Assembly (NCBI GenBank): GCA_041651495.1
Contig: JBAZJC010000001.1
Location: 1-44,003 of the forward strand
Origin: Candidatus Omnitrophota bacterium
GTDB taxonomy: Bacteria > Omnitrophota > Omnitrophia > Omnitrophales > Aquincolibacteriaceae
Direction: 5' to 3'
DNA: 44,003 nt
Positions 71-24,345 of the stretch are shown here, one piece after another (within the stretch, counting starts at the first letter, position 1; each line of letters opens with the position of its first letter). Below the pieces are notes generated by a model. It worked only from the letters and a program-made list of their open reading frames with translations. It searched no databases and was not told the origin of the DNA. A program made the position numbers and the translations under genes.

Positions 71-631
71 ATGGCGATCATGCGGCCTAAAATCAAGATT
101 ATCGTGAGCGTTTGCACCTTCTTGATCTTAATATTTTTTTTGGTTAGTTTCGGAAGCTATTTACACCAGAAGATAAGAATAAAAAATCATGCGACTGGAG
201 CAACTACCTCCATATTCACTGTCCAGATTAATCTCTCTCCGTTATTTGAATCACCACAAGGATGGGGACCCGGCTTTGCTTTGGCCAAAGGGGATGGCCC
301 AGGCGTTGTTGTCGGACCAGGCACAGAAAACCCCAATGTATTTGCACAATCGTTTCTGGCGAAGCCGTATCAACCGTTCAAGGTCATCGCAAGGGCCTTA
401 AGCGTGGTTGCGCCCAAGGCAAGAGGTCGTTTTCAAATTAATTGGACAGACTCACAGGATAAATTCATCTCGGTTTCCATCGAGTCATTTGAAGTAACCG
501 ATCAAGAAAAAAAATTTGAATTTTATGTGCACGCACCGAAGGGTGCGGTAGCTGGAACCTTATATGTGGTGGGAGATGGTTCCAAAGATGTGGTGCGTTA
601 TACTGAAATGAGATTGCTTGGAAAGATGTAG
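71..631 (+). CDS. Single-pass membrane-anchored protein carrying copy 1 of an unrecognised ~130-aa beta-rich module (putative glycan-binding)
   Basis: ORF of 186 aa with an N-terminal hydrophobic helix (IIVSVCTFLILIFFLVSFGSYL). The rest is paralogous to the N-termini of ORFs 697..1926 and 8706..9968. GGAGA at 66-70 fits the second in-frame ATG at 80 better than the ATG at 71. Confidence 0.8.
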   Translation: MAIMRPKIKIIVSVCTFLILIFFLVSFGSYLHQKIRIKNHATGATTSIFTVQINLSPLFESPQGWGPGFALAKGDGPGVVVGPGTENPNVFAQSFLAKPYQPFKVIARALSVVAPKARGRFQINWTDSQDKFISVSIESFEVTDQEKKFEFYVHAPKGAVAGTLYVVGDGSKDVVRYTEMRLLGKM

Positions 632-696
632 GACGAATCAAAAATCCAGTACGTTAATGGATGACTGTGATAATAGATCCCCAATAGGAGGAATTC

Positions 697-1926
697 ATGC
701 CATTGAATAAAACGCCGCTTGTGACAATTAATAAGTCGCCACTCTTTGATAAACCTGAGGGTTGGGGCTCTGGGTTTACGTTGGCCAAGGGGAAGGGCCC
801 CGGGGTTGTTGTAGGGCCCGGCTCTAATAACCCGAACGTCTTTGCTCAACGATTTTCAGCAAAACCGATGGAGCAATTCAAAATCGTGGCCCGGGCATCG
901 AGCGTGGGGAAACCTAAGGCAAGGGGACGTTTCCAAATTAACTGGGAAAGTTCGGGAAAATTTCTTTCTGCCTCCATCAAAGCTTTTGAAGTAACAGCGG
1001 AAGAAAAAATTTTTGAACACTATGTGATCGCTCCGCCCGGAACGGTGTCTGGAACGATCTATGTCGTGCCGGATAAGCCAAAAGATGTCGTGCGATATAC
1101 CGAGATGACATTGCTGTCCCACTCAGGCTCATCCGCCGAAATTGCGCCCGAACCCCCTCAAATTCCACGATTTCCTTCAAAACTGATACATTTGTCAGAT
1201 CCTGTGACTCGTTCACAATATGGAAATCTTTTTCGAGGATACGATGATGAAGTGACCTTTAAGGAGATGATTCTCGCCGTACAAGGTTATACGATGGTAA
1301 CATACGATGGTTTGTGCGGATTGCTTAGTATGGTTCGTTATTGTGAACGGGCGGGAATCCCTGGAGATTACGTTGAGGTGGGTGTATGGAAAGGTGGTTG
1401 TGCTGGATTAATGGCCCAAGGCTCCAAGTATTTTGGAAAATCACCACGAAAAATTCATGTCTTTGACTCATTTCAGGGACTTCCGCAGCCTATCGCCAGC
1501 AAGGATTTTGATGGTTATCTCGAACCGACTTTTGCTGTAACTGAGGCGACTGCCCAGGGTGTGCTACAACCTATAGGCATGTTAGTAGCCTCTGAAAATG
1601 ACGTCAGAAAACTATTGTTCGATAAGCTCCGATATCCCAAAAATCAGGTATCCATACACAAAGGTTGGTTCCAGGAAAGTATTCCTGCCGCGAATTCCAG
1701 CATTGAGAGTATCGCAATTCTCCGGCTTGACGGGGATCTGTACGATTCATACAGGATTGCCCTGGAGTATCTTTACCCTAAGGTTGTTAAGAACGGCTTT
1801 GTGATCATTGATGATTGGGTTTTTGGCGGTTGCCGGAAAGCTGTTATGGAGTATTTTGAGAAAAATGACTTTTCACCGTATTTGTGGACTCTGGATGGAA
1901 CAACCCGGTGTTTCCAAAAGTTATAA
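697..1926 (+). CDS. Two-domain protein: copy 2 of the unrecognised beta-rich module fused to a TylF/MycF-type SAM-dependent O-methyltransferase
   Basis: AGGAGG at 686-691 lies 5 nt before the ATG. The C-terminal half has TylF-family signatures (GDYVEVGVWKGG, LRLDGDLYDSY, IIDDW). The N-terminal ~130 aa aligns with ORF 71..631. Confidence 0.85.
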   Translation: MPLNKTPLVTINKSPLFDKPEGWGSGFTLAKGKGPGVVVGPGSNNPNVFAQRFSAKPMEQFKIVARASSVGKPKARGRFQINWESSGKFLSASIKAFEVTAEEKIFEHYVIAPPGTVSGTIYVVPDKPKDVVRYTEMTLLSHSGSSAEIAPEPPQIPRFPSKLIHLSDPVTRSQYGNLFRGYDDEVTFKEMILAVQGYTMVTYDGLCGLLSMVRYCERAGIPGDYVEVGVWKGGCAGLMAQGSKYFGKSPRKIHVFDSFQGLPQPIASKDFDGYLEPTFAVTEATAQGVLQPIGMLVASENDVRKLLFDKLRYPKNQVSIHKGWFQESIPAANSSIESIAILRLDGDLYDSYRIALEYLYPKVVKNGFVIIDDWVFGGCRKAVMEYFEKNDFSPYLWTLDGTTRCFQKL

Positions 1927-1961: not shown

Positions 1962-2885
1962 ATGTTGCGATCGATTAAAGAACGCGTCAAAGAGTCTATC
2001 AAGACCTATCTTGAATCCCAGGAAAAGCAAGCCAAAGTTCTAGGCAACGAAATAGAAAAAGAGCTGAATCTCCTGGATGAAACAAATCAGAAGAAATCAA
2101 TAGTGGGTCAAGCCGTTAGATTTTGCCCAAGCCACATTCATTTGTCCGATCCGTATGTGAGAGAGAATTTTGGTGCTCTGTCGCGAGGGTACGATGAAGA
2201 AAATATTTATAAGGAATTCATCTCTTTGATTCGTGACTACACGATGGTCACTTACGATGGCCTGATCAGCCTGTGCGATATTGTGCGAAATTGCGAACAG
2301 AAGGGAATAACAGGGGACTTTGCTGAAGCGGGGGTGTGGAAGGGGGGAGCTACCGCGCTGATGTCTCTGGTTTCTTCGAAATTCGGCAATAAACCGAGAA
2401 TGATTCATGCTTTTGACTCCTTCATTGGATTACCCGAGCCGATTGGTGAAAAGGATTTTGATGTGCGCTATCTAAATATGGAAGAGACTTTTAAAATCTC
2501 TAAAGAAGAATCCAGGGGAAATCTCAGGCCCATTAACGCGTTGTGTGCTGAGAAGGAAACTTTTCGGAAGCTTCTTGTTGATAAGATAGGCCATCCAACT
2601 GACAAGTTGATGATTTATGAGGGATGGTTCCAGGATACAATACCAAAGGCGATTGACAAAATAGAAGAGTTAGCGATCTTGCGCTTAGACGGAGATTTAT
2701 ATGATTCCTATAGGATTTCTTTGGAGTATTTGTATCCAAAAGTAAAAACCGGCGGTTTTGTGATTATCGATGATTGGTGTATCGGCGGTTGCAGAAAAGC
2801 CATCCAGGAATATTTTGCCGCAAGGGGTGGGGTGCCCTTTATGTCGACCGTGGATATAACCGGCAGGTATTTTATCAAGCCCTAA
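1962..2885 (+). CDS. TylF/MycF-type SAM-dependent O-methyltransferase with a short charged, helical-looking N-terminus
   Basis: 307 aa with GDFAEAGVWKGG, LRLDGDLYDSY and IIDDW. It is a clear paralog of the C-terminal half of ORF 697..1926. Confidence 0.85.
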   Translation: MLRSIKERVKESIKTYLESQEKQAKVLGNEIEKELNLLDETNQKKSIVGQAVRFCPSHIHLSDPYVRENFGALSRGYDEENIYKEFISLIRDYTMVTYDGLISLCDIVRNCEQKGITGDFAEAGVWKGGATALMSLVSSKFGNKPRMIHAFDSFIGLPEPIGEKDFDVRYLNMEETFKISKEESRGNLRPINALCAEKETFRKLLVDKIGHPTDKLMIYEGWFQDTIPKAIDKIEELAILRLDGDLYDSYRISLEYLYPKVKTGGFVIIDDWCIGGCRKAIQEYFAARGGVPFMSTVDITGRYFIKP

Positions 2886-2952: not shown

Positions 2953-4641
2953 ATGAACAGTTCCATTTTGCGATTGGCCCGTCAGAATCTACAACTAGCT
3001 TCCGCAACAAGCCGGAACGTTCCACTTCCTGACCCTGGATGGAGGTGGCATGCCTATAGGCAAAACGCCATGAAATGGGTAAATTATTTCAGAACCCCCA
3101 TTGAAGTAATACATGCCATTCAGTCCCCAAGAAGCGGTGTCGGATTTGAATGCAGAATGACCGGCCCAGCTCTTGTAAAACACACACGAAATATGGAAAA
3201 GATTTTATTACGCATTTTTCCTCGGTTGGGGAATGCTATAACGACATTTGCAGAAAGCGAACTCTCGAATCCGGACACGATCACCGTCCTGAATGATCGT
3301 CTGGTTAGCAGTCCGCTCTACAATCATATCACGCATGTGATGCGTTGCCTTTTGTTCGTGTCCCCTGCAATTGTTGCCGAAATTGGCGGAGGTTATGGAG
3401 CCCCGGCGCGTCTTTGGATGACGAACGGCCTGCATCGGCCCAAGTGCTACATCGATATCGACTTCCCCGAAAGCCTCTATTATGCAGAAACGTATCTTCG
3501 AGCGAATTTTTCCGAAGAAAGTTGCAAGATTGTTTATGCACACCGCGACACTGATATTGCAAAGGAGATTAGTGCGGGTGCTCGGATCATTTTGATGCCC
3601 ATCGCAAACATGGACGCCTCACTCGTTCTGCCTATCGATCTGCTGGTAAATACCGGCTCGTTACAGGAGATGAGTACCGAGTATGTCGACTTTTATATGA
3701 AATGGATTGATAAATCAAAAATCCAAAATTTTTATTCCTCAAATTATTTTGGCCAGCCTATTGAGGCGCTTATGGAGGGAATGAATTACGCTGCGCCTGT
3801 GATGCCCTCCGGTTGGAAGGCAAAGCTCAAAGCACTGCACGCCGATGCATCTAGACCCGTCGCGGAGATGTTCTTTGTGCGTGAAGACGGCACGGATTTC
3901 AGGGATTCCGTAACAAACAAAATACACGCCCTGCTAAAAGCTCCCGATCCAATAGCTCTGGGTGAGTTTCTTGAGCTGTTTGATTATTTGCGACATGTTG
4001 ATGATCGCCAACTTATAATCGAAACGATAAATAAAGCTCTAAAAATGAAATATGTTCCTAAAGAAGCTCTCTTTTTGGCGCGGTGTTTGTCGAATACGCC
4101 GAATGGCGGAAACAGCCAAGACAGGACCCAAATAGACGTCCTGAAAACTCTTGAAAAGATGGCGTCAAGTGGTATTGAAAAAATGGGAATCGTAGGTGCT
4201 ACCGCGAACAAGCTGAGAAGCGCACTCATCAAAGACGGGGCAGCTTCAGGCTTGCCGTTTGCGGAAGGACGTTTACGGGAGGAGACGGATGGAGCCACGG
4301 TCGAAATATCTTCTGCGGACCGTCAACTAAGAAACGGGACTTGGGGATCTGTTGAGCGGATGGAAAAGATCTCCAATCAAATCATCGCTTCCGGATGGGC
4401 CTCGGGGAAATCACCGGAAGATAAAGTTAACAACATTCACTTGTTTTTAGACGGTGGCCTTGTCGAGAGCGTCAGGCCGTCAATTATTAGAAAGGAATTC
4501 GGCTCCAAGGGAAAATTAGTCGGCTTCGAAATCAATGCCGTCTTGCCGGTAAACTCACTGGAATGGCGGTACGTTTTGTTGCTCGCCGAGTTTGAAGATG
4601 GTTCTGTCGGCTATTTGACAAATGGGGGAGAAATTCAATAG
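2953..4641 (+). CDS. Putative SAM-dependent (sugar O-)methyltransferase with a ~230-aa C-terminal extension of unknown function
   Basis: 562 aa with a glycine-rich motif I (VAEIGGGYGAP) at aa 141-150. From memory the overall look matches the TIGR04371-type putative sugar O-methyltransferases; this is unverified. The C-terminal ~110 aa are beta-rich (IIASGWASG...HLFLDGGLV...VGFEI). Confidence 0.6.
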   Translation: MNSSILRLARQNLQLASATSRNVPLPDPGWRWHAYRQNAMKWVNYFRTPIEVIHAIQSPRSGVGFECRMTGPALVKHTRNMEKILLRIFPRLGNAITTFAESELSNPDTITVLNDRLVSSPLYNHITHVMRCLLFVSPAIVAEIGGGYGAPARLWMTNGLHRPKCYIDIDFPESLYYAETYLRANFSEESCKIVYAHRDTDIAKEISAGARIILMPIANMDASLVLPIDLLVNTGSLQEMSTEYVDFYMKWIDKSKIQNFYSSNYFGQPIEALMEGMNYAAPVMPSGWKAKLKALHADASRPVAEMFFVREDGTDFRDSVTNKIHALLKAPDPIALGEFLELFDYLRHVDDRQLIIETINKALKMKYVPKEALFLARCLSNTPNGGNSQDRTQIDVLKTLEKMASSGIEKMGIVGATANKLRSALIKDGAASGLPFAEGRLREETDGATVEISSADRQLRNGTWGSVERMEKISNQIIASGWASGKSPEDKVNNIHLFLDGGLVESVRPSIIRKEFGSKGKLVGFEINAVLPVNSLEWRYVLLLAEFEDGSVGYLTNGGEIQ

Positions 4642-4678: not shown

Positions 4679-5959
4679 TTATCTATGCTTGCGCAAATAG
4701 TCCAAATCTGACTGAAACAGCTTCCGGGCGTATTGATAAATAATTAGATCGAAACGATTTATTTTGGCCAGTTCCTTTCTTTCATAATTCGACAAGATGG
4801 TGACATTGCGTTTACTGGAACCCGCATTAAGTCGTTTTATGGGTTTATCGGTCCAACCGAGTAAACTGCCAATCAAATCAACTGATTCGTTGTATCTCTC
4901 TGTCAAACCAATGAGGAAACGTTCCCTTAAATTTTCTATCGCTTCTTCGCAATGTCTCCTTTCCAAAGAACCGGGTGGAATTTGCCATAGCGCCCTGCGA
5001 TCATGGCCATCGAATGCATTTTTTGCCGGGAATTTCTGCATGGCGCTGCTACAAATAGGAACGCCTTTAGCAGAGATATCTTCGTAGCCGTTGACCGGAA
5101 TCAAGCGTCTTTCTTGTTCGAAGAATTTCAAAGCTACTACACCCCAACGAGCAGTCTGGGGTCCAGACAGAGCACGTATTCTCCAAAATCGGGCTTTCTC
5201 GCAGTCTGGGATCGAGTAAAAGTACATGCCGTGGCCCTGTTTCAGTGTGAGCAAGGCTGCCGTTCGAATATCGGCGGTAAAACAATCTTCGGAGTATTCC
5301 ACCGAGACTTTTTTCACACCGCCAATCGACGGATAACGTGTCGCCGAGTACGGGTTGTTCCACTGGCGCAGAGCGATCGTGCGTACTGCGGTGGGTTTGT
5401 CGCATTCTAGGCCCAGAAAAGAAGTGCGTTTGACAAAAGGGTTCGTTTCTCCAGACAACCAGAAAGTTGCCTCGGTAAATTCGCAGGAAATGAGAAAACG
5501 TGTCATGACATTGTCAAAATTTTCCGCAAATTGTAGCAATGTTTTGTTTTGACAATTTTCAGAAAAATAAGTGGGCGCATCTTGGCTTTCAGCGCTGAAA
5601 TAGTAGGACGAAAGAACCCGGTCCAAAGGTCCCCGAAGAAATGTCATGTAAGTGCATTCGCCAAACAGCTTATGAAGCCCTACCGGCATGTGTGCTGCAA
5701 CAACTTTGATTTTTTTTTGCTCATCAGCCGTCAAGCTGAGCAATGTCTTTAGGTTGCCTTCCACTCCTTGGTAGGGCATTACAACAGCATCTTTAGGATA
5801 GTTCCTCTTCAGGAGATCATAAACAGAGTGTCCGGCGGTCTTCGGAATATGAACAAAAAATAGTGGGCGATTCTTCCTGACCTTTTCCCAGAAATTCGCG
5901 GGCCGGCTCCTGTTGCGGAAAAAATAAGCTGCGGTTTTGGAGAGACAAGAATAAAGCAT
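4679..5959 (-). CDS. Sulfotransferase (Sulfotransfer_2-like) with a ~170-aa internal insertion
   Basis: 426 aa. The 5'-PSB motif is FFVHIPKTAGHSV and the 3'-PB-like motif is FLRGPLDRVLSSYY. The C-terminal part (ENLRERFLIGLTERYNESVDLIGSLLGW) is typical of the family. It is the only well-supported minus-strand gene in the window. Confidence 0.8.
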   Translation of the reverse strand: MLYSCLSKTAAYFFRNRSRPANFWEKVRKNRPLFFVHIPKTAGHSVYDLLKRNYPKDAVVMPYQGVEGNLKTLLSLTADEQKKIKVVAAHMPVGLHKLFGECTYMTFLRGPLDRVLSSYYFSAESQDAPTYFSENCQNKTLLQFAENFDNVMTRFLISCEFTEATFWLSGETNPFVKRTSFLGLECDKPTAVRTIALRQWNNPYSATRYPSIGGVKKVSVEYSEDCFTADIRTAALLTLKQGHGMYFYSIPDCEKARFWRIRALSGPQTARWGVVALKFFEQERRLIPVNGYEDISAKGVPICSSAMQKFPAKNAFDGHDRRALWQIPPGSLERRHCEEAIENLRERFLIGLTERYNESVDLIGSLLGWTDKPIKRLNAGSSKRNVTILSNYERKELAKINRFDLIIYQYARKLFQSDLDYLRKHR

Positions 5960-6262: not shown

Positions 6263-7135
6263 GTGAAATGGAATCCCATGAGCAAAGTCATTCATACTAG
6301 CGATGCAGAAGCCTTTAAATGGCGCCAGCTTATGCCCTGGCGCATTTTCCAGGATCTCTTCAAGTATCGCAGTTTAATTGCAACCATGACAATCCGGGAT
6401 TTTAAAGCAACATATCAAGCCAGCTATCTCGGTTTGACCTGGCAGGTTCTCCTGCCGCTAATTATGCTCTCTATCTTCTATTTTGTTTTCGGACGAATTC
6501 TGGGGGGGAAATTTTTGCAGTCTGCCACCGAATCGCCGATTGATTATGCACTCGCCCTTTTTATTGGATTGGGTTTTTTTAACTTTCTAGCACAAAATAT
6601 CGGCTCTGCACCATCTCTTATCGGCTCTAACGCCACCTACGTCAAAACTCTTTCATTCCCGCTCGAGATCCTATCGGTGACTTCCGTACTGAACGCGCAG
6701 CTTACTCAGGTGATCGGCTTGGTTCTGTCGACGCTGGCGCTCCTTTTTGCCAAAGGAAGTCTGCCCTGGAGTATCATTTGCATTCCATTCTACGTTTTAT
6801 GCATTTTCTTAATTGCCATTGGCGTATCATGGGGACTTTCGGCATTGGCCGTTTTTTTCAGGGACATTGCTGGACTTGTTTCGCCAGTGACGCTTATGTT
6901 GATGTTTTTGTGTCCGATCTTTTACCCTATGAGCATGGTACCAAAGAAGCTACGGTGGGTTATAGAAATTAATCCCATAGCTATTATCATCGAAAATGCA
7001 CGCGGATGTTTTCTCTACGGAAGGTGGCCTAGTTTGATGTCTCTGGCAGTGATTCTTGGTTTTTCGTTATTTGTTTTTGTCGTTGGGCATTTTATTTTCA
7101 TGAAAACGAAGTCCGCTTTTGCGGATGTTATGTAG
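6263..7135 (+). CDS. wzm: ABC-2 type polysaccharide export permease (Wzm-like)
   Basis: 290 aa and multi-TM, with the N-terminal RDFKATYQASYLGLTWQVLLP motif typical of ABC-2 permeases. It lies directly upstream of the ATPase. The start is either GTG 6263 or the in-frame ATG 6278. Confidence 0.85.
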   Translation: MKWNPMSKVIHTSDAEAFKWRQLMPWRIFQDLFKYRSLIATMTIRDFKATYQASYLGLTWQVLLPLIMLSIFYFVFGRILGGKFLQSATESPIDYALALFIGLGFFNFLAQNIGSAPSLIGSNATYVKTLSFPLEILSVTSVLNAQLTQVIGLVLSTLALLFAKGSLPWSIICIPFYVLCIFLIAIGVSWGLSALAVFFRDIAGLVSPVTLMLMFLCPIFYPMSMVPKKLRWVIEINPIAIIIENARGCFLYGRWPSLMSLAVILGFSLFVFVVGHFIFMKTKSAFADVM

Positions 7136-7165: not shown

Positions 7166-8695
7166 ATGAGCGCTGATCCAATAGCTGTCCGTGTCACCAA
7201 TTTGACTAAGATTTACCGTCTATGGAAATCTCCGCGAGAACGGCTGATTTTTCCGCTCAAAGGCATATGGAATTCTTTCTTGCCCTCGTCGTGGAAAAGA
7301 GAGAACGAACAAGCAAAAGGTTACCGTGAGTTCCACGCACTGCATAATATTTCCTTCGAAATCCGAAAAGGAGAGGCCTGGGGTTTTATCGGTGTCAATG
7401 GCAGTGGAAAATCGACTTTGCTCAAAATCATATCCGGCAATCTGCGTCCCTCGGAGGGAACCGTTGAGGTTGATGGCAAGGTTGCAATTCTCAATTACGG
7501 GAGCGGAGTAAGTGGAGATTTTACTGGCCGTGATAATATCTACGTCAAAGGGGCACTTCTTGGTCTTACCCAAAAGCAGTTGAATGAAAGATATAAAGAA
7601 ATTGTGGAATTTGCTGACATCGGAGATTTTATCGATCAGCCGGTCAAGACATATTCTAGCGGTATGAGTGCGCGGCTTGGCTTTGCGATCATGATGCACG
7701 TCGACGCGGACATTATGATTTCGGACGAGGCTCTTGCTGTGGGAGATGCCTTTTTTGTGCAAAAGGCCATGCGCCACATCAGATCCTTCCTCAAACGCGG
7801 AACGTTTCTCTTTGTCTCTCATTCGGCTATGGATGTCATGAGCCTGTGCAGTCATGCAGTCTGGTTGGACCATGGTCGCATCGTCCAAATGGGCACTGCT
7901 AAACAAGTATGTCAATCCTATATGGATGCTGTTGTCCGAAAAAACTCAGAAAGACTGCAAAATGAAGGTATTGAAGGCTTGGCAAAAGAAAATACTGATT
8001 CTAAAAAAGACATTGCGGTTAAAATAAAAAAAGAAGATCTTGGAATCAAAGAGAAACTATTAGTTCGGACCAAGACAAAACATATTAGTGTCTCAGGGAA
8101 GGACCTGGCCGCTTTAAAAAAGCACTATTTGCCACATTCGGAACACAATAAATTATTGGCGTCTCGACTGCCTCGAGTTGAGATTTATGAGCCTGCTTCG
8201 AGCACGATGGATTCGATTATTGCAAGCGGTGCTGTGGGGGGAGGAAAAATTTTTAGCGTAACAATTACTGATGATAAAGGAGCGGCCTTGTCTTCGGTTC
8301 TCGGCGGCGAAATTGTTCGGCTTACGATCAGGGCTATAGCAGAAAAGGCTATCAAACGGCCCATTCTCGGTTTTCAGTTGAAAAACAACCTTGGACTTCC
8401 TTTGGTTGGCGAAAATACCCACGAGGTCATGGGGGAGCATGACTTCTCCCTGCAGCCGGGTGAGGTTATTTCGGCACAATTCCGTTTTATGATGCCTTTG
8501 ATAGCGGTCGGGGAATATATGATTTTAGCAGCATTCCATGACGGCGTTCAGATTAGTAGTGCAGCTATTGATGTTATACATGAGGCGCTATTGCTTCACA
8601 GCATTACATCGGGCGATCGACATGGAATGGTGGGTGTTCCGATGCTGGCAATTGATATTACTCGCGACAAAGTTTCGGCATTTAACAATTCGTAG
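7166..8695 (+). CDS. wzt: Polysaccharide ABC exporter ATPase (Wzt-like) with a K/E-rich linker and a C-terminal beta-rich domain
   Basis: Walker A is GVNGSGKST, the signature is YSSGMSARLGFA, and Walker B is IMISDEALAVGD. About 260 additional C-terminal residues are present; the last ~160 resemble Wzt C-terminal carbohydrate-binding domains. Confidence 0.88.
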   Translation: MSADPIAVRVTNLTKIYRLWKSPRERLIFPLKGIWNSFLPSSWKRENEQAKGYREFHALHNISFEIRKGEAWGFIGVNGSGKSTLLKIISGNLRPSEGTVEVDGKVAILNYGSGVSGDFTGRDNIYVKGALLGLTQKQLNERYKEIVEFADIGDFIDQPVKTYSSGMSARLGFAIMMHVDADIMISDEALAVGDAFFVQKAMRHIRSFLKRGTFLFVSHSAMDVMSLCSHAVWLDHGRIVQMGTAKQVCQSYMDAVVRKNSERLQNEGIEGLAKENTDSKKDIAVKIKKEDLGIKEKLLVRTKTKHISVSGKDLAALKKHYLPHSEHNKLLASRLPRVEIYEPASSTMDSIIASGAVGGGKIFSVTITDDKGAALSSVLGGEIVRLTIRAIAEKAIKRPILGFQLKNNLGLPLVGENTHEVMGEHDFSLQPGEVISAQFRFMMPLIAVGEYMILAAFHDGVQISSAAIDVIHEALLLHSITSGDRHGMVGVPMLAIDITRDKVSAFNNS

Positions 8696-8705
8696 GCCAT
8701 GATTT

Positions 8706-9968
8706 TTGAATTCTTCCATTACGAAAACAAAGGGTTTTATTGTGTTGATACAAATCAAACGGCAGGTTAATACCTCTCCATTATTCGAAATATCGCAAGG
8801 TTGGGGTCCTGGATACGCCCAAGCAATCGGGCATGGTCCGGGAGTCGTTGTGGGACCAGGGAATGATAATTCCAATGTTTTCGCGCAGCAATTTTCCGCC
8901 CAATCGAACCAGCAATTCAAAGTGACATCGCGAGCTTCGAGTGTGGGCACGCCCAAGGCAAGCGGGCGTTTTCAGATTAACTGGACAAACTCAGGAAAAT
9001 TTATTTCCAGTTCTATCCAAATATTCGAAGTAACAACGCAAGAAAAAATTTTTGAATTCTACGTGACGGCTCCGGCCAGAACAACAAATGGGGTGTTATA
9101 CGTAGTCGCCGGCGGTCCGGAAGATGTGGTGCGTTATACTGAGATGAGGTTACAGGAAATATATCCAATAAATGGGTTTGAAACCTTTTCAAAAGATAAT
9201 GAGCTCCGGAAGAAACCGCCGGCGATTGAAGCAACGCCCGCCAAAAACCCCAAATGGGGGACGCCTTCATACGACTCAGACTATTTGAGAGTTTGGTTCA
9301 GGAATACGGATTTTCTTCAGGATAAGGAATTTATGAAGGCATACCGGGCAGGTATCAACTCCGGACATAGAATCGGCGGCGCAACATTATCGTCACAGGA
9401 CATTCACATCGAATGGCGAATACTTGTCTGCTGTTGGGCGGCCTGGCACGCAAAACATCTTAGCGGAGACTTTGTTGAATGTGGAACCAATACTGGCATC
9501 ATGTCCTTGGCCATTTGCAATTACATAAAGTTCAACGATACACGAAAAAATTTTTATCTCTTCGATACTTTTTGCGGAATTCCTGACGAGCAAGTTCTTC
9601 CTGAAGAGCGCGCAATGGGCCTCCACCTCCAAAACTCAGATTATGAAGAATGTTTCGAGACTGTTAAGCGAAATTTCAACCCCTATCCAAGTGTACACCT
9701 TGTACGGGGAAAAGTTCCCGACGTACTCCCGTCGCAACCGATCGATAAGGTATGTTATTTAATGTTGGATATGAATATTTCAGTTCCTGAAAAAGCCGCA
9801 CTCGAATATTTCTGGGAAAAACTCGTTCCAGGGGCTATTGTTCTTTTTGACGACTACGGGTGGAGTGGTTATATTGCTCAAAAGTCAGCCCATGATGCGT
9901 TTGCTGCATCAAGGGGAACTAAGATTTTAAATCTTCCGACAGGACAGGGGATGCTGATAAAACCTTAG
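8706..9968 (+). CDS. Two-domain protein: copy 3 of the unrecognised beta-rich module fused to a divergent class I (TylF-like) SAM methyltransferase
   Basis: The N-terminal ~130 aa aligns with ORFs 71 and 697. The C-terminal half has GDFVECGTNTG and LMLDMN...IVLFDDYGW. The start is uncertain: TTG 8706 or GTG 8742, the latter preceded by AAGGG. Confidence 0.8.
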   Translation: MNSSITKTKGFIVLIQIKRQVNTSPLFEISQGWGPGYAQAIGHGPGVVVGPGNDNSNVFAQQFSAQSNQQFKVTSRASSVGTPKASGRFQINWTNSGKFISSSIQIFEVTTQEKIFEFYVTAPARTTNGVLYVVAGGPEDVVRYTEMRLQEIYPINGFETFSKDNELRKKPPAIEATPAKNPKWGTPSYDSDYLRVWFRNTDFLQDKEFMKAYRAGINSGHRIGGATLSSQDIHIEWRILVCCWAAWHAKHLSGDFVECGTNTGIMSLAICNYIKFNDTRKNFYLFDTFCGIPDEQVLPEERAMGLHLQNSDYEECFETVKRNFNPYPSVHLVRGKVPDVLPSQPIDKVCYLMLDMNISVPEKAALEYFWEKLVPGAIVLFDDYGWSGYIAQKSAHDAFAASRGTKILNLPTGQGMLIKP

Positions 9969-10040: not shown

Positions 10041-11252
10041 TTGCACGATCTGACATTGATCATACCGACTTACAATCGGCCGGTACACTTAAAGCGACTG
10101 TTGGCCTACTACCATCAGGCCAACATGCAGAATCGCTTTCTCGTGCTTGATTCGAGCCATGAAGCGATTCGGAATGGAAACAAGGCACTGGTCGCTTCCT
10201 GCGGAGAGAGCTATCGGCATATTGTTTTTCCATCCTCGATGCCGGTGGCTACCAAACTTTTTGAGGGGTTGAGTTTGGTTCAAACGCACTATGGTGCCAT
10301 TTGTGCCGACGATGATGTGATTTTTCACGATGCATTGCGAAAGGCGCTTGCTTTTTTATCAACACACCCGGATTATGTTTGCGCCGATGGAATCTATCTC
10401 AATTTTCGACCTTCAAACAATGAGATCCACTTTCAAATAGAATATGGCAGTCATGGTATTGATGCGAATCACCCCGGTGCTCGTGTTTTCCGTTTATTCC
10501 AGCGTTATGAATCGATGTTTTATGCAGTTTACCGGGCATCCAACCTTCGGGATATTTTTTCTTTCGTCAAAAATATCCCGACCCTTCATTATCAGGAACT
10601 TTTTCAAACAACCGCCGCTATGCTCAAGGGGAAAAGCCATCGCCTCTCGGAATTTTATGCAGCACGCCAAGCCTGTGGGCCAGCGGATCCTATCCGCGAT
10701 AAGTGGCAAACCTTTTACTGGTTCGCGGACAATAGCGCTGAATTTCTTTCGCATTATAAGGCCTATCGTGATGACCTTTGGGGGTTTTATCAAAAATTTT
10801 GTACTGGACAGGAAATGGATCAAAAAGTTTTTTTCTTGGCTATGGATACGGCACATGCTGTGTTTTTTTCCACGGGCTGTCCGCCCAAGTATTTCTACTC
10901 GCGGCTGCAGCAGCATTGGCCCGAGGATGTTCTAGCCATTATTAATGATTCGGATAATGCGCTGGAAGCCTTGAAAAGCAATTTTATGCGAAAAACGGAT
11001 GAAGTTTTGAATGTCGTTGCATGGCAGCTCAGAAAACGAGGATTTTTAAATAGTTACAATCCGCCAAGAACAGTCGAACGGCTTCGGGGCGAAGTGGCTG
11101 CGAAAGGAATCGATGGCAAGCGATGGGGTTGCAGACTTCCTCAGAATCTTTTGTGGCTAGCAGCAAAGCCAAGGTTTCGCGCGGCATTTTCTGAACTTTG
11201 CAACTATCTTGACGATGCCAAAGAAAAACCGAACCCACATGACCAGGCTTAA
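10041..11252 (+). CDS. GT2-like glycosyltransferase-domain protein (resembles the TIGR04440-type domain)
   Basis: The N-terminus [21 protein letters not shown]...LVLDSS...CADDD is typical of a GT-A fold. The TTG start is preceded by GAGGA. The C-terminal ~200 aa are unassigned. Confidence 0.6.
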
Positions 11253-11269: not shown

Positions 11270-12043
11270 ATGAAGGCAGTCATCCTTGCAGGAGGGTTGG
11301 GCACCCGCATCAGCGAAGAAGCCACTTTGAAACCCAAGCCGATGATTGAGATCGGCGGTAAACCGATTTTATGGCACATCTTGAAACTTTATTCTGTGCA
11401 CGGTATCAATGATTTTGTGATCTGCTGCGGCTACAAGGGTTATGTGATAAAAGAATATTTTGCCAACTACTTTCTCCACATGTCGGATGTTACTTTAGAT
11501 ATGTCCAACAATAAAATGGAAGTACATCGGCAGAAAGCTGAACCGTGGAAGATAACGCTTGTGGATACCGGAGAAAATACCATGACCGGAGGCCGTCTCA
11601 GGCGTGTGGCGGATTATGTAAAAAATGAAGAGATCTTTTGTTTTACCTACGGCGATGGGGTCGCCGATTTGGATATTTCTGCTGAAATTGCTTTTCATAA
11701 AAAACATGGCCCGTGGGCAACGATTGCGGCAGTTAGACCACCGGGGCGTTATGGAGCCCTTCTTTTGGAAGGAAAAAGAGTGGCAGGATTTATGGAAAAA
11801 CCCCGCGGTGATGGCGGGCTTATCAACGGAGGATTTTTTGTCCTGTCGCCGAAGTGCCTGGATCTGATCGCAAACGATCTGTCCATCTGGGAAGATGAGC
11901 CGCTGACCCAGCTCGCGAAATCCGGACAACTGATGGCATATGAGCACAAGGGGTTTTGGCAGCCTATGGATACCTTGCGGGAAAAGAACTATCTCGAGCA
12001 ATTGTGGGCCTCCGGAAAAGCACCCTGGAAAGTGTGGCCGTGA
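11270..12043 (+). CDS. rfbF: Glucose-1-phosphate cytidylyltransferase
   Basis: [17 protein letters not shown]...[50 protein letters not shown] is near-diagnostic for RfbF/DdhA. Confidence 0.92.
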
Positions 12044-13101
12044 ATCGAGGTTTTTGGAAGGGCAAGCGCGTCTTCCTGACAGGCCACACCGGATTTAAGG
12101 GTGGCTGGCTGGCACTCTGGCTGGCGAATATGGGAGCCGAAGTTCATGGCTTTGCGCTATCCCCGTCGACAACCCCCAATTTTTTTGCCATTTGCAAAAT
12201 TCAATCACATCTTAGAAGCAATACGATTGCGGATATTCGCGATGCCGAGACATTGGCCAAAGCCATGCGATTAGCCAAACCCGATATCGTGTTTCACTTG
12301 GCAGCTCAACCTCTGGTGCGATATTCCTACACCGCTCCGGTGGAGACTTATGCCGTCAATGTGTTGGGCACCATCCATTTACTTGAAGCCGTTCGACATA
12401 CACCGAGCGTTCGCGCCGTTGTAAACGTTACGACTGACAAATGTTATGAAAATCACGGGCAAGATAAGCCTTACTGCGAGAGCGAAGCCCTGGGGGGGCA
12501 CGATCCTTACTCCAGTAGTAAAGGATGCTCGGAATTGATCACTGCCGCATATCGCAGATCATTTCTGGAACCTGCCGGCGTTCAGTTAGCCAGCGCCCGT
12601 GCGGGAAATGTGATCGGGGGCGGAGACTGGGCAACAGACCGGCTTATCCCCGATTTCTTGCGAGCATTTGATTCGGGTCAGATTTTGATCGTTCGTTCGC
12701 CGAATGCAACCCGGCCATGGCAACATGTGCTCGAGCCACTTTCCGGATACTTGATGCTTGCAGAAAAACTTTGCACAAAGGACAGCGATTTTGACGAAGC
12801 TTGGAACTTTGGTCCTGAAGAATCCGACACCCGTCCCGTGCGATGGATCATTGAATATCTTGGCGGCCAGGTTTTTGGATTTAGGTGGCAGGACGACAAA
12901 ACGCCGCAGCTTCATGAAGCTCATTGCTTAAAGCTGGATAGCTCCAAAGCCAAGGCAAGGCTTGGCTGGCACCCACGCTGGGATCTGAAAACAGCTCTCG
13001 ACAAGACTTTGGCATGGCACAAGGCCTGGAAAGGGACGGCTGATATGGCGAAGGTGAGTCTGGCACAAGTCTGTGAATACGAAACGGCGGCCAAGGCATG
13101 A
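12040..13101 (+). CDS. rfbG: CDP-glucose 4,6-dehydratase
   Basis: [29 protein letters not shown] and the overall length match RfbG/DdhB. I place the start at GTG 12040, overlapping the rfbF stop (GTGA), rather than at the ORF-track start 11956, which lies inside rfbF. Confidence 0.9.
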
Positions 13102-13661
13102 CCAGCCGATTTGATATTTTGGAGACTCCCATCCCGGCATTAAAGCTGATACAGCGTAAACCTCACAAGGATGTCCGTGGATATCTTGAGCGTCTGTTTT
13201 GTTTGGAAGAACTTCAACCGCTCGTTTTGAATAAAAATATCACGCAAATCAATCATACCCTGACGGCCAGAAAAGGGACGGTGCGGGGGTTGCATTTTCA
13301 AAATCCGCCGCATGCCGAGACAAAATTTATCAGCTGTTTGCGAGGCAAAGTATTTGACGTCGCGGTGGATGTACGGCACAGCTCTCCCACTTTCCTGAAA
13401 TGGCATGCGGAGATTCTTAGCGCCAAAAATCATAAAACCCTGGCAATCCCGGAAGGTTTTGCTCACGGGTTTCAGGCGTTGACTGCAAACTGTGAAATGC
13501 TTTATTTTCATACGGCGAATTATCATCCGGAAAGTGAAAAAGGTCTTCATGCGCAGGACCCGCGTCTTGCAATCAAATGGCCCTTAACGATCACGGAGTT
13601 ATCGGAGCGAGACAGCGCCTATCCGATGATCGGACCGGATTTTACAGGGGTGCCTGCATGA
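13098..13661 (+). CDS. NDP-4-keto-6-deoxyhexose 3,5-epimerase (RmlC/RfbC cupin family)
   Basis: RGLHFQ..P..ETKFISCLRGKVFDVAVDVRHSSPTF...IPEGFAHGFQAL. ATGA overlap with the rfbG stop. Confidence 0.88.
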   Translation: MTSRFDILETPIPALKLIQRKPHKDVRGYLERLFCLEELQPLVLNKNITQINHTLTARKGTVRGLHFQNPPHAETKFISCLRGKVFDVAVDVRHSSPTFLKWHAEILSAKNHKTLAIPEGFAHGFQALTANCEMLYFHTANYHPESEKGLHAQDPRLAIKWPLTITELSERDSAYPMIGPDFTGVPA

Positions 13662-14884
13662 AATGCCGTCATTGCGCTTCGATATTGGAGCTGCCTTTTC
13701 TGGATTTGGGGAGTATGCCCTGCTCCAATGCGTATCTTAACGAACAATCACTGGCGACTACGGAAAAGATGTTCCCCTTGCGTGTGTGGGTGTGCAAACG
13801 CTGTTGGCTTGCACAAACAGAGGATTTTGTCCGCACCTCAGAACTTTTTGATTCTCAATATGCCTATTTTAGCGGATTTTCCAGTAGTTGGCTGGCACAC
13901 TGCGAGCGTTATGTGGCCGATATGGTGGCACGCTTTGGCTTAACCCGTAATAGTCACGTGGTGGAAATTGCGGCCAACGACGGCTATCTCCTGCAATATG
14001 TAAAGATTCGTGATATTTCTTGTACAGGCGTAGAACCGACAGCGAGCACTGCTGCTGCGGCTCGGGCCAAAGGCATTTCGATTGTTGAGGATTTTTTTGG
14101 TGTCCGTCTGGCCAAGCTGATGGTGGCACAAGGCAAACAAGCCGACCTGGCGATTGCCAACAATGTTCTTGCCCACGTGCCGGATATTAACGACTTTGTT
14201 GCAGGTTTTGCCTTGCTGTTGAAACCGCAGGGCGTCGGTACGTTCGAGTTTCCCCATTTGTTGAATTTGATCACCCAAAACCAGTTTGATACGGTATATC
14301 ATGAGCATTTTTCATATCTTTCAATGACTGCCGTGAATACTATTTTTAGCGCCAATGGTCTTACCGTATTTGACGTCGAGACCCTGCCCACTCATGGCGG
14401 GAGCCTGCGTGTGTATGCGCAGAGAAGCGACACGGGAAATAAGAAAAGTGAGGAACGCGTAGGCAGATTGATAGCCGTGGAATTGGATGCTGGCATGACA
14501 AAAAATAGTTTTTATGCGGATTTTCAGGCAAAGGCGGATGGTGTTAAAAATAATTTTTTCTCATTTCTGACCCAAGCAAAAAAATCCGGGAAGAAATGCG
14601 CCGCATATGGCGCGGCAGCCAAAGGGAACACGCTTCTTAATTTTGCGGGTATCCACAAAGACCTTTTACCCTACATCGTGGACAAAAATCCGGCCAAGCA
14701 GAATAAATGGATGCCTGGAAGCCGCATTCCCATCGTTGCCGAAACGGTACTAAAAGAAAATAGACCGGATTATGTGATCATTCTTCCCTGGAATTTGCGC
14801 GATGAGGTGATCGGGCAGTTGTCTTATGTGCGCAAATGGGGCGGAAAGTTTGTTACGGCCGTGCCGAACCTGGTGGTAACATGA
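13658..14884 (+). CDS. NDP-hexose C-methyltransferase (Zn-ribbon N-domain, class I MTase, C-methyltransferase C-domain; TylC3-like)
   Basis: MKCRHCAS...CKRCWLAQTE is a Cys4 ribbon, VVEIAANDGYLL is motif I, and the C-terminal YGAAAKGNTLLNF...VDKNP.KQ is typical. The ATG at 13658 overlaps the upstream stop (ATGA). Confidence 0.85.
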   Translation: MKCRHCASILELPFLDLGSMPCSNAYLNEQSLATTEKMFPLRVWVCKRCWLAQTEDFVRTSELFDSQYAYFSGFSSSWLAHCERYVADMVARFGLTRNSHVVEIAANDGYLLQYVKIRDISCTGVEPTASTAAAARAKGISIVEDFFGVRLAKLMVAQGKQADLAIANNVLAHVPDINDFVAGFALLLKPQGVGTFEFPHLLNLITQNQFDTVYHEHFSYLSMTAVNTIFSANGLTVFDVETLPTHGGSLRVYAQRSDTGNKKSEERVGRLIAVELDAGMTKNSFYADFQAKADGVKNNFFSFLTQAKKSGKKCAAYGAAAKGNTLLNFAGIHKDLLPYIVDKNPAKQNKWMPGSRIPIVAETVLKENRPDYVIILPWNLRDEVIGQLSYVRKWGGKFVTAVPNLVVT

Positions 14885-15726
14885 AGATCGCAGTAACCGG
14901 TGCCAATGGTTTTATCGGCCGCCATGTCCTTGCGGAATTGGCGCAAAAGAAAGTCCCGTGTGTAGCCGTTGATCTTTTCCTTCCGGAGAAAAAAAAAGCG
15001 GCTGGCATTGACTGGATACAGATTGATTTATGTGAGTCTCCGGTGGATGTTTTCAACAGAATAGGCCGGCCTGATACACTTATCCACCTAGCGTGGGGAG
15101 GATTGCCCAATTACCGTTCGACCCATCATTTGGAAAAAGAGCTTCCGGGACAATATAAATTCTTAAGCGGGCTTGTTCATGCAGGGCTTCGGCGTCTGGT
15201 GGTTACGGGAACTTGTTTCGAATACGGGATGAAGTCCGGCATGTTGACGGAGGATTTAATGCCATGTCCCGAGAATCCTTATGCCCGCGCCAAAAATTCT
15301 TTGCGGCAGCAGCTGGAATCTTTGAAATTGGTCAAACCTTTTCATCTGGTGTGGGCACGGCTTTTTTATATGTACGGAGAAGGGCAGCCGAAAACATCGC
15401 TTTTCAGCCAGCTCAAAGAGGCTGTCTTACGGGGGGATGCCGAGTTTAATATGTCAGGCGGCGAGCAGTTGCGGGATTATCTTCCAGTCACTGAAGTGGC
15501 ACGCGAAATTGTCCGGCTGGCAATGCTCGGCCGTGATGTCGGAACAGTTAATATCTGCTCGGGAATGCCCACCTCCGTGCGCGAGCTGGTGGGGCGGTGG
15601 CTCAACAAAAAAGGGTGGAAAATCAAACTGAATCTTGGCTATTACCCTTATCCTGACTATGAGCCCATGGCTTTTTGGGGCAGCAGAACGCGATTAGATT
15701 CGATCATTGCGGAAGCAAACCGATGA
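14881..15726 (+). CDS. NAD(P)-dependent epimerase/dehydratase-family SDR (candidate 4-ketoreductase)
   Basis: MKIAVTGANGFIGRHV is a Rossmann motif and YARAK is the catalytic YxxxK. ATGA overlap with the upstream stop. Confidence 0.85.
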   Translation: MKIAVTGANGFIGRHVLAELAQKKVPCVAVDLFLPEKKKAAGIDWIQIDLCESPVDVFNRIGRPDTLIHLAWGGLPNYRSTHHLEKELPGQYKFLSGLVHAGLRRLVVTGTCFEYGMKSGMLTEDLMPCPENPYARAKNSLRQQLESLKLVKPFHLVWARLFYMYGEGQPKTSLFSQLKEAVLRGDAEFNMSGGEQLRDYLPVTEVAREIVRLAMLGRDVGTVNICSGMPTSVRELVGRWLNKKGWKIKLNLGYYPYPDYEPMAFWGSRTRLDSIIAEANR

Positions 15727-16490
15727 AAATAGAAATTGATACTGCCACAGCGACATTGAAATTCTTCGACGGGGCAAAGATCCGGCAATATTCTTTGTAT
15801 TCACGTGAAGCATTCGAAGTAATTTCGCGTCTCTGGCTCAAGGTGGGCTGGAACGAAAAATATCCCTATACGTTTACTTGGCTGGGCCGTCCGATCATCC
15901 AATTACCCGAGGACATTCTCCGAATGCAGGAGGTCATTTATCGCGTCAAACCGGATGTAATCATCGAAACCGGAGTGGCGCATGGAGGTTCGCTGATTTT
16001 TTACGCGAGTTTGTGCAAGGCTATGGAAAAAGGCCGCGTGGTGGGCATCGATATAGAAATCCGTAAGCACAATCGTCATGCCATTGAAGCGCATGAGTTA
16101 AGTTCGTTTATCGCCCTGATCGAGGGCAGTTCGGTGGATCCTGACATCGTCGCCCAGGCTGGCCGGGGCGTTAGGCCCGGCGAATCGGTGTTGGTTATTT
16201 TGGACTCAAATCATTCGAAGGCTCACGTGGCCGCGGAGCTTGAGGCTTATGCACCGTTGGTGACACACGGCTCTTATATCGTCGCGACGGATGGCAGTAT
16301 GGAATTTCTTGACGATGTTCCTCGGGGCACGTCCAGTTGGAAAACGGACAACCCGTCTGCCGCAGCGCGGGAATTTGCCGCCAGGCATCCTGAGTTTGTC
16401 ATCGAACAGCCGGCATGGGCGTTCAATGAGAGCGATTTGGGTGAAAACATTACGCATTGGCCGGATGCCTGGCTGAAACGGGTTTCCTGA
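15723..16490 (+). CDS. CmcI / cephalosporin-hydroxylase-family methyltransferase
   Basis: WLGRPIIQLPEDILRMQEVIYRVKPDVIIETGVAHGGSLIFYAS...VVGIDIEIR matches the CmcI family. ATGA overlap with the upstream stop. Confidence 0.85.
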   Translation: MKIEIDTATATLKFFDGAKIRQYSLYSREAFEVISRLWLKVGWNEKYPYTFTWLGRPIIQLPEDILRMQEVIYRVKPDVIIETGVAHGGSLIFYASLCKAMEKGRVVGIDIEIRKHNRHAIEAHELSSFIALIEGSSVDPDIVAQAGRGVRPGESVLVILDSNHSKAHVAAELEAYAPLVTHGSYIVATDGSMEFLDDVPRGTSSWKTDNPSAAAREFAARHPEFVIEQPAWAFNESDLGENITHWPDAWLKRVS

Positions 16491-18602: not shown

Positions 18603-18647
18603 TTCATTCGTGACCGGTAAAACACAGCAGTTCAAACAGGTTTGCTA

Positions 18648-24330: not shown

Positions 24331-24345
24331 AGCAAGGAAGATCAT

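Follow-up and report, generated by a model that had tools for sequence, protein, structure and literature searches.

A divergent CBM4/9-like module, repeated three times at an Omnitrophota Wzm/Wzt glycan locus, as a candidate polymer-targeting domain of tailoring enzymes

The 44,003-bp contig JBAZJC010000001.1 of a Candidatus Omnitrophota bacterium, analysed here in its entirety and referred to below as the window, encodes a Wzm/Wzt-type ATP-binding cassette (ABC) exporter and, around it, three copies of a protein module of about 133 residues. One copy makes up most of a small protein with a hydrophobic N-terminal segment, the product of open reading frame (ORF) 1, whereas the other two precede TylF-type methyltransferase domains in ORF2 and ORF8 (Table 1). 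What is this module, and why does a single glycan locus carry it several times? We consider the repeat, the selection acting on it, its predicted fold, its homology to the CBM_4_9 family, its association with one type of locus, its repertoire of fusion partners and its pattern of conservation to be established, and from these we argue that the module is probably a carbohydrate-binding module (CBM) that brings enzymes to the polymer being made.

The three ORFs were verified in the window, the first of them being the first annotated gene of the contig. The copies align across 133-134 residues with a single indel of one residue and a mean column identity of 80%; at the protein level they are 64-69% identical to each other (66-68% to copy 1), and pairwise BLASTP E values of 1e-60 to 1e-65 exclude chance similarity. 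A hidden Markov model of the family, run against the six-frame translation of the whole window, found exactly these three copies and nothing else. An initial annotation, made from the sequence alone, had placed the segments to within a few bases of the boundaries given here and had described the full-length alignment with its one indel correctly. The conserved blocks that it listed were all found, except that GKF(I/L)S occurs in copies 2 and 3 only, copy 1 having DKFIS. At the nucleotide level the copies are ~66% identical, with a proportion of synonymous differences (pS) of 0.70-0.75, a non-synonymous divergence (dN) of ~0.25 and a dN/dS of at most 0.13. Since synonymous sites are saturated and dN/dS is low, the copies are old paralogues under purifying selection, as had been proposed.

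The genome probably holds a fourth copy beyond the window. The window starts at position 2262 of a contig from another assembly of the same organism (L007), whose positions 1-2260 encode, just upstream, a DltA/DltC-like pair composed of an AMP-binding enzyme of 540 aa and a PP-binding carrier protein of 78 aa. The pair is preceded by the final 58 residues of a protein that shares 69% identity with the C-terminal end of a module-bearing AlgJ-like lipoprotein of a related locus (L001), and it is this remnant that suggests a further copy, cut by the end of the contig.

Searches with single copies, with a three-copy profile and with a 72-sequence profile (A3) gave no real match in Pfam, NCBIfam or the PDB sequences, which agrees with the earlier failure to find a named family. 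Short matches to DUF5849 (E 0.07), a 'Pizza' repeat and protein A were discarded as spurious, and none of the three window copies matched Pfam CBM_4_9 (PF02018), even at E<=10. An AlphaFold2 model of ORF1, built with a 63-sequence alignment, predicts an all-beta fold of nine to ten strands for residues 50-186 (predicted local distance difference test, pLDDT, ~97; ~50-60 at the N-terminus). A second, independent model of full-length ORF2 (pLDDT 94.6) has the same fold in its N-terminal part, and the module portion scores ~96-97 in both. The best PDB matches of the ORF1 model were the CBM16 structures 2zex, 2zey and 3oea (Foldseek E ~1e-6; template-modelling (TM) score, normalised to the target, 0.62-0.67), followed by CBM4, CBM22 and CBM11 and then by CBM-like domains of phage tailspikes. 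The N-terminal domain of ORF2 retrieved the same CBM matches, CBM16 included, at E ~1e-7; across both models, CBM16 (2zex/2zey) matched with TM scores on the target of 0.61-0.67 and E values of 1e-6 to 1e-7. Modelled within ORF1 and within the full ORF2 fusion, the module is thus predicted to be an all-beta jelly roll whose best matches are sugar-binding CBMs.

Profile searches led in the same direction. The family is rare, with 145 relatives among 1.84 billion cluster representatives in an exhaustive profile search. The weakest hits include two proteins, P0143 and P0124. In their matched domains the start ('NLL.NP.FE...W') and the end ('W.Y.DD.sF') are canonical for CBM_4_9, whereas the central strand ('R.QVNW...G.F(I/L)') is that of the module. 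The P0143 domain aligned to the 72-sequence module profile with an hhalign probability of 99.2% (E 1.8e-19, 95 columns) and scored 28.0 bits on Pfam CBM_4_9, for which the gathering score is 25.9; a P0124 domain scored 43.6 bits on the same model, and both domains had been retrieved by the module profile. From the predicted fold and the profile links through these two proteins, we assign the module to a divergent beta-jelly-roll subfamily of CBM4/9 (CBM_4_9, CBM16/22-like), much as the initial annotation had guessed. It would merit a Pfam/CAZy entry, because current models miss it.

Compared with CBM_4_9 and the CBM4/9/16/22 domains (e.g. CBM16 of Caldanaerobius polysaccharolyticus, 2zex/3oea), the module is alike in predicted fold, in a length of ~130-150 residues and in the N-terminal 'N.sP.FE..(g)W' motif, with the remote homology running through the intermediate domains. 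In contrast, it has 'VVRYTEM' where the canonical family has its C-terminal 'vYvDDv' strand, and a GVVVGPG loop and a QINW strand form a signature of its own. It also sits on biosynthetic tailoring enzymes, rather than on glycoside hydrolases as CBM_4_9 does, and many of its copies are cytoplasmic. Kinship with the Wzt_C domain of the window's own exporter was considered and rejected, the module profile giving an hhalign probability of 0.4% against Wzt_C and no Pfam Wzt_C match being found.

The catalytic partners in the window are of the TylF type, as originally suggested. Residues 196-408 of ORF2 match Pfam TylF at 1.6e-42, and Foldseek aligned this C-terminal domain with the deoxysugar O-methyltransferases NovP, SpnH and MycF (E down to 1e-17, ~30% identity) and also with CalS11, the structure of which was deposited as a TDP-rhamnose 3'-O-methyltransferase. 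The substrates of SpnH and MycF are sugars already linked to an acceptor. The linker that joins module and enzyme has low confidence in the model at ~145-160. NCBI names the protein a TylF/MycF/NovP-related O-methyltransferase, and 13 full-length fusions of module and TylF domain (407-421 aa) from other sources were counted as its orthologues. The ORF8 product (P0275) matches Pfam TylF at 1.9e-15 and is called as a 408-aa gene in other assemblies. Gene calling in independent assemblies of this organism likewise gives each of the two fusions as one gene. They consist of module and TylF domain only: no Pfam kinase match was found in either, and the ORF2 model lacks a long helical region.

A wider survey showed that methyltransferases are only one kind of partner. 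Word-index searches with module profiles retrieved almost exclusively short stand-alone proteins and no fusions, which were found instead by the exhaustive search of representatives and by querying with full-length ORF2; the resulting sample of 186 module-bearing proteins is therefore biased by the queries used. Stand-alone proteins with a lipobox are the commonest form (47/186), and 12 others have a different N-terminal hydrophobic segment. The module follows a polytopic membrane protein in 39, precedes a soluble enzyme lacking a signal peptide in 20 and precedes a membrane domain in 17. Twelve proteins combine a signal or lipobox with the module and a soluble extension; in seven it lies C-terminal to one to three transmembrane segments and a soluble domain, and in another seven C-terminal to a soluble domain without transmembrane segments. 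The remainder are short (<=235 aa) or fragmentary proteins with no N-terminal hydrophobic segment (21) and other arrangements (4). A lipobox was detected by pattern in 49 of the 59 stand-alone members, and three more have a Cys-containing variant outside the pattern, so that the stand-alone proteins are predicted to be exported lipoproteins, with ORF1, which lacks a lipobox, as an exception.

Several of the fusions involve relatives of enzymes encoded in the window itself. In P0103 the module is joined to a sulfotransferase 49.5% identical to the protein encoded at 4679..5959, in P0070 it forms the C-terminus (residues 428-559) of a homologue, 45% identical, of the window's GT2 glycosyltransferase, and in P0126 it precedes a NanM-like methyltransferase related to the product of 2953..4641. 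Elsewhere it is found on an Acyl_transf_3 plus SGNH (AT3-SGNH) protein (P0087), on a GT-C glycosyltransferase assigned to PMT_2 by Pfam (P0074) and before a C-terminal AlgJ/AlgX-like 'DSHW' domain, encoded downstream of an MBOAT gene with one ~540-aa gene between. The narrow link to methyltransferases drawn in the initial annotation thus gives way to a much broader one, in which the module is most often a free lipoprotein. No fusion to an ABC ATPase was seen among the 186 proteins, and ABC_tran was absent from all of the fusion proteins scanned with Pfam, which were a part of the set.

Several partner domains have no Pfam family. One protein (P0062; L018 3747-5927, 726 aa) has two tandem N-terminal modules followed by a ~430-aa domain of unknown function, and that domain stands alone in another locus (L019 11086-12387, 433 aa), between a gene for a module plus AlgJ-like protein and wzt.

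The partners place the module on both sides of the membrane. Enzymes that use S-adenosylmethionine (SAM), 3'-phosphoadenosine-5'-phosphosulfate (PAPS) or nucleoside diphosphate (NDP)-sugars require substrates of the cytoplasm, and the module copies on such enzymes come without a signal peptide. The lipoproteins, the SGNH domains of AT3 enzymes and the C-terminal domains of GT-C enzymes are periplasmic. Nevertheless, one set of residues reaches at least 85% conservation in each of the two classes, namely P5, F7, W13, G26-V-x-V-G-P-G32, N37, Q41, A57, Q70, N72, W73, P103, G109, Y112, V113, V122, Y124, E126 and M127, and no position was found that discriminates cytoplasmic from periplasmic copies. 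Neighbour joining of 175 module sequences gives a star-like tree, in which architectures and phyla are intermixed at 60-72% identity; it separates neither cytoplasmic from periplasmic copies nor the window copies from those of other phyla, and it gives no order for the duplications.

The closest relatives of the window copies are stand-alone proteins of ~190 residues. Labelled carriers comprise Gallionella, Rhodocyclales, Burkholderiales, Alphaproteobacteria, a Solemya gill symbiont and Margulisiibacteriota, with module identities of 45-73% across phyla, and tblastn found no match in plasmids or phages. We retrieved eight related loci with a purpose-built 16-sequence alignment, a search with alignment A1 having found nothing. 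The loci examined come from Rhodocyclales and Burkholderiales metagenome-assembled genomes (MAGs), metagenomic contigs and other assemblies of the same organism, and the association described here is based on a dozen loci rather than a census. Homologues do lie in glycan loci: all seven loci of close relatives have wzt with a Wzt_C domain, and six of the seven also have wzm and a ~400-aa GT2 gene, L017 running off the end of its contig. A set of CDP-sugar, C-methyltransferase and CmcI genes occurs in most of the seven, the CDP-sugar pathway of the window (11270-17407) being found again in L003, L005, L017, L018 and L019, and an MBOAT-based acetylation set is frequent. Wzm of the window is 54-64% identical to its counterparts in module-carrying Rhodocyclales and Burkholderiales loci, Wzt is 51-61% identical to those of proteobacterial loci, and the GT2 protein 42-55% to its partners in L001, L003, L005 and L015. 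More than one module copy per locus is the rule, as a lipoprotein with an AT3-SGNH-module protein, a lipoprotein with a module-AlgJ-like protein or two adjacent small proteins, and in four of five betaproteobacterial-type loci the free lipoprotein gene lies just upstream of wzt.

These results suggest a model in which the module recognises the glycan that all of these proteins handle. The polymer is the simplest candidate for something that the module could meet on either side of the membrane, whatever enzyme carries it. We therefore propose that the module acts as a CBM that directs its carriers to this substrate in general rather than to chain-end capping in particular, a reading that we hold to be probable. 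Since it is fused to many classes of enzyme, it would be a general polymer-targeting tag, used on both membrane faces and apparently dedicated to one kind of ABC-transporter-exported polysaccharide. Judging from the conserved sugar-pathway genes, that polysaccharide would be O-antigen-like and built from a CDP-activated, C-methylated and O-methylated 6-deoxyhexose. The core of the initial annotation, a CBM4/9-like module that targets enzymes to the polymer, therefore has computational support, although its assignment of the TylF enzymes to chain-end capping has none. Binding of the chain could raise the local substrate concentration, or the processivity, of the attached tailoring enzyme. In ORF2 and ORF8 the module would act in the cytoplasm, bringing the methyltransferases to the undecaprenyl-linked chain before its export by Wzm/Wzt, and these enzymes, like their structural relatives, would methylate sugars, here residues of the lipid-linked chain. 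The copy in ORF1 would be membrane-anchored and, by analogy with the lipoprotein orthologues, face the periplasm, where it could bind the exported chain as an AlgF/AlgX-like acetylation helper, in hand-off, in retention or as a receptor at the transporter exit. We also considered a bolder proposal, that one CBM family serves as the universal address label of a single polysaccharide throughout its pathway and that Wzm/Wzt export includes the free lipoprotein as a periplasmic component so far overlooked. Such a lipoprotein, in the inner or the outer membrane, would capture the emerging chain and act as a ratchet or hand it on to acetylation or WaaL ligation; we regard this as rather unlikely.

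Several points weigh against polymer targeting. Glycan binding, the identity of the ligand, the targeting role and the topology of ORF1 are all matters that we infer. The window copies fall below every Pfam threshold, and their homology to CBM_4_9 depends on transitive links and a predicted fold. The ORF1 product (P0001, listed by NCBI as a hypothetical protein from a Candidatus Omnitrophota MAG) is ambiguous in topology, because its 22-residue hydrophobic segment has no lipobox and is flanked by three positive charges on each side. Jelly-roll folds of the CBM type also mediate protein-protein contacts. In the distant loci L013-L015 no wzm or wzt was found within 10 kb, although by Pfam scan the neighbours in L013 and L015 are still those of glycan-modification loci. 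Finally, among analogous domains on O-antigen enzymes only the CBM of ORF12 has been tested, and it proved dispensable under the conditions used (PMC11127046).

Could the module instead be a docking domain that recruits tailoring enzymes to Wzm/Wzt, to the GT2 protein or to each other, with ORF1 as a membrane tether? The recurrence of the same conserved Wzm, Wzt and GT2 partners, the presence of several copies per locus, the very high module identity across phyla, which is as expected for a conserved protein interface, and some Foldseek matches in protein contexts (Cry toxins, tailspikes) would all fit. However, copies on both sides of the membrane share their conserved residues, and no single soluble protein partner is present in both compartments; in structure as in sequence, the module finds its best relatives among genuine sugar-binding CBMs, and distant members have no wzm/wzt nearby. 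The stand-alone orthologues, as predicted exported lipoproteins, would be unable to tether cytoplasmic methyltransferases, and for the same reason we hold it unlikely that ORF1 does so through module-module contacts. Overall we consider docking improbable. A catalytic role, for example as a small jelly-roll lyase or hydrolase, or a role in binding the lipid carrier, seems very improbable indeed. The invariant polar residues Q41, Q70, N72, Y112, Y124 and E126 could in principle form an active site, but at ~133 residues the module has the size of a CBM, its top structural matches are without exception CBMs that lack catalytic activity, it occurs only as an appendage of a recognisable enzyme or as a lone lipoprotein, and no enzyme family was matched in the Pfam, NCBIfam and PDB sequence searches.

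Another reading, which takes up the chain-end idea of the initial annotation, is that the module resembles Wzt_C in function and reads the modification state or the terminus of the chain, so that the diverged paralogues would each recognise their own intermediate and impose an order on methylation, sulfation, acetylation and capping. The exporter does have a Wzt_C domain, which signals the terminal cap in studied systems, and a CBM is predicted in the Klebsiella pneumoniae O7 terminator (PMC11231755); the locus encodes many methyltransferases and a sulfotransferase, and the three paralogues differ at about one third of positions. We nonetheless give this little chance. The profile shows no similarity to Wzt_C, nothing marks the TylF enzymes as cappers, and the module is also found on GT2, GT-C and acetyltransferase proteins, which are not terminators. 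Moreover, all architectures have their strongly conserved residues in common, which favours one common epitope over state-specific reading and is consistent with our preferred view of the module as a targeting domain for the polymer as such.

How does polymer targeting compare with known systems? One precedent is the GT-C enzyme ORF12 (GT136) of Citrobacter youngae O1, whose isolated CBM binds the unmodified O-polysaccharide backbone; EmbC and AftD also carry CBMs (PMC11127046 and work cited there). In both cases, ORF12 and the present family, a CBM is appended to an enzyme that modifies an ABC-transporter-exported O-polysaccharide, and the 39 module proteins counted above have the module C-terminal on a polytopic membrane protein, P0074 being itself a GT-C enzyme. 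The likeness considered here is one of architecture, and there are differences: the ORF12 CBM is described as Ig-like and is known only from the periplasm, whereas the module is also found on cytoplasmic methyl-, sulfo- and glycosyltransferases and on free lipoproteins, with several copies per locus. AlgX of alginate biosynthesis, an SGNH-like O-acetyltransferase with a C-terminal CBM (PMC4148444), offers a second architectural parallel, since there too a periplasmic acetylating enzyme with a CBM acts beside an MBOAT protein, and related loci encode an MBOAT protein, a ~540-aa protein and a module plus AlgJ-like 'DSHW' lipoprotein. The domain order is reversed, however, the module being N-terminal, the polymers differ, and export is synthase-dependent in the one case and by Wzm/Wzt in the other. 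Wzt_C (PF14524) is a cytoplasmic beta-sandwich CBM of the same pathway, encoded in the same locus (7166-8695), but it is fixed to the transporter ATPase and reads a terminal cap, unlike the module, which sits on tailoring enzymes on both sides of the membrane.

ORF2 and ORF8 share with WbdD of Escherichia coli O9a (PMC3482155) and with ORF6 of K. pneumoniae O7 (PMC11231755) that they are methyltransferases of Wzt_C-type ABC loci. They differ from WbdD in having neither a kinase domain nor a coiled-coil ruler, and in a catalytic domain of the TylF/NovP type. The initial annotation had set a glycan-recognition module apart from the WbdD ruler as a different solution. That contrast was overstated, given the ORF12 CBM (PMC11127046), the CBM predicted in the O7 terminator, whose role was not pursued and which was the only terminator CBM identified according to the Whitfield laboratory in 2024 (PMC11231755), and the candidate WbdD-like rulers present in related loci. 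The latter are proteins of 1074-1189 aa in betaproteobacterial loci, which make better candidates than ORF2 or ORF8 for a WbdD-like terminator or ruler; in the window there is only the 426-aa sulfotransferase, encoded on the opposite strand.

These large proteins head their loci (L003 1-122, 1074 aa; L018 1-1301, 1189 aa; L019 213-3605, 1130 aa; L001 2080-5514, 1144 aa). Sulfotransfer_1 matches were seen in those of L003 and L018 and faint or weak coiled-coil Pfam matches in those of L018 and L019; the L001 protein has no Pfam match on record and a NanM-like C-terminal region.

CBMs on enzymes that build or modify polymers are thus already known, from AlgX, EmbC, AftD and ORF12. To our knowledge, none of the cytoplasmic tailoring enzymes in O-antigen systems that depend on an ABC transporter has a characterised domain for recruiting its substrate. 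What is new here is how one conserved CBM is deployed: in the cytoplasm on methyl-, sulfo- and glycosyltransferases, in the periplasm on acyl- and glycosyltransferases, and as a free lipoprotein, in several copies per locus and tied to one conserved locus type. A domain of 133 residues, predicted to be well folded, is found on almost every enzyme class of that locus type and on both membrane faces. If it does bind the polymer, it could be used as it stands to probe a glycan of uncultivated bacteria that is so far uncharacterised, heavily methylated and built from branched deoxysugars. It would also help to predict which of the unannotated proteins act on that glycan, and it would offer a test case for the efficiency of post-polymerisation modification.

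Table 1. Module copies, the proteins that contain them and neighbouring genes in the window
Feature	Coordinates	Strand	Description
ORF1	71..631	+	186 aa; hydrophobic anchor at ~residues 10-31, then copy 1; stand-alone form
Module copy 1	227-628	+	134 aa, within ORF1
ORF2	697..1926	+	409 aa; copy 2, ~20-residue linker, TylF/NovP/MycF-type deoxysugar O-methyltransferase; no signal peptide
Module copy 2	727-1125	+	133 aa, within ORF2
TylF-type methyltransferase without module	1962..2885	+	53% identical to catalytic part of ORF2
NanM-like putative sugar O-methyltransferase	2953..4641	+	562 aa; NCBIfam TIGR04371 3.3e-23
Sulfotransferase	4679..5959	-	426 aa; Pfam
Wzm	6263..7135	+	ABC-2 permease of glycan exporter; Pfam ABC2_membrane 2.8e-24
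Wzt	7166..8695	+	ATPase with C-terminal Wzt_C carbohydrate-binding domain; Pfam ABC_tran, Wzt_C 9e-21
ORF8	8706..9968	+	420 aa; copy 3, then second, more divergent TylF-type methyltransferase; directly 3' of wzt
Module copy 3	8766-9164	+	133 aa, within ORF8
GT2	10041..11252	+	~400 aa; conserved; occurs with module in related loci
CDP-sugar pathway	11270-17407		NTP_transferase, 4,6-dehydratase, 3,5-epimerase, Methyltransf_13/14 sugar C-methyltransferase, reductases, CmcI-type O-methyltransferase

The module-less methyltransferase that follows ORF2, the third of the TylF type, belongs to the same tailoring set; its N-terminus, where the module would be, is instead a charged and probably helical segment ~60 residues long (MLRSIKERVKESIKTYLESQEKQAK...), which might form a short coiled coil. 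The CDP-sugar pathway accompanies the module, wzm/wzt and the ~400-aa GT2 gene in different phyla. Its product is predicted to be a CDP-activated, C-methylated and O-methylated 6-deoxyhexose, and the gene set resembles what we would presume for a branched sugar of the vinelose/evalose type. A literature search on homopolymers of 3-C-methyl 6-deoxyhexose, the likely sugar, found nothing directly applicable.

Further along the window, after the heptose genes, lies a stretch (22112-26163) with an O-antigen ligase of the Wzy_C/WaaL type (22112-23362), a GT2 gene and a carbamoyltransferase (24346-26163). The ligase and the carbamoyltransferase suggest that in this genome the exported glycan is probably ligated to the lipopolysaccharide (LPS) core and may be carbamoylated. 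The 418-aa product of an ORF at 18642-19898 belongs to no Pfam family and shares 48% identity with a protein of 433 aa encoded on the minus strand of L017 (12513-13814); it is a further conserved unknown of these glycan loci. Related loci also encode a protein of 780-807 aa without a Pfam family directly upstream of wzm (L001 5501-7843, L003 94-2517, L018 1366-3738, L019 3609-5975) and, after the MBOAT gene, one of 533-540 aa, likewise without a Pfam family (L001 16260-17861, L005 5844-7463, L018 8356-9972). The C-terminal ~270 residues of the former are 31-50% identical to the latter. Loci of this type have here a domain family of their own that is still uncharacterised, and the window encodes no homologue of it.

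Finally, we noted a step in base composition, the GC content rising from 0.44-0.47 in the first 12 kb, where the genes for the module, the methyltransferases and the exporter (wzm, wzt) lie, to 0.48-0.54 over the remainder. Together with the 42-64% identity of Wzm, Wzt and GT2 to proteins of Beta- and Alphaproteobacteria loci, this suggests horizontal acquisition or a mosaic origin of the block of exporter and tailoring genes.

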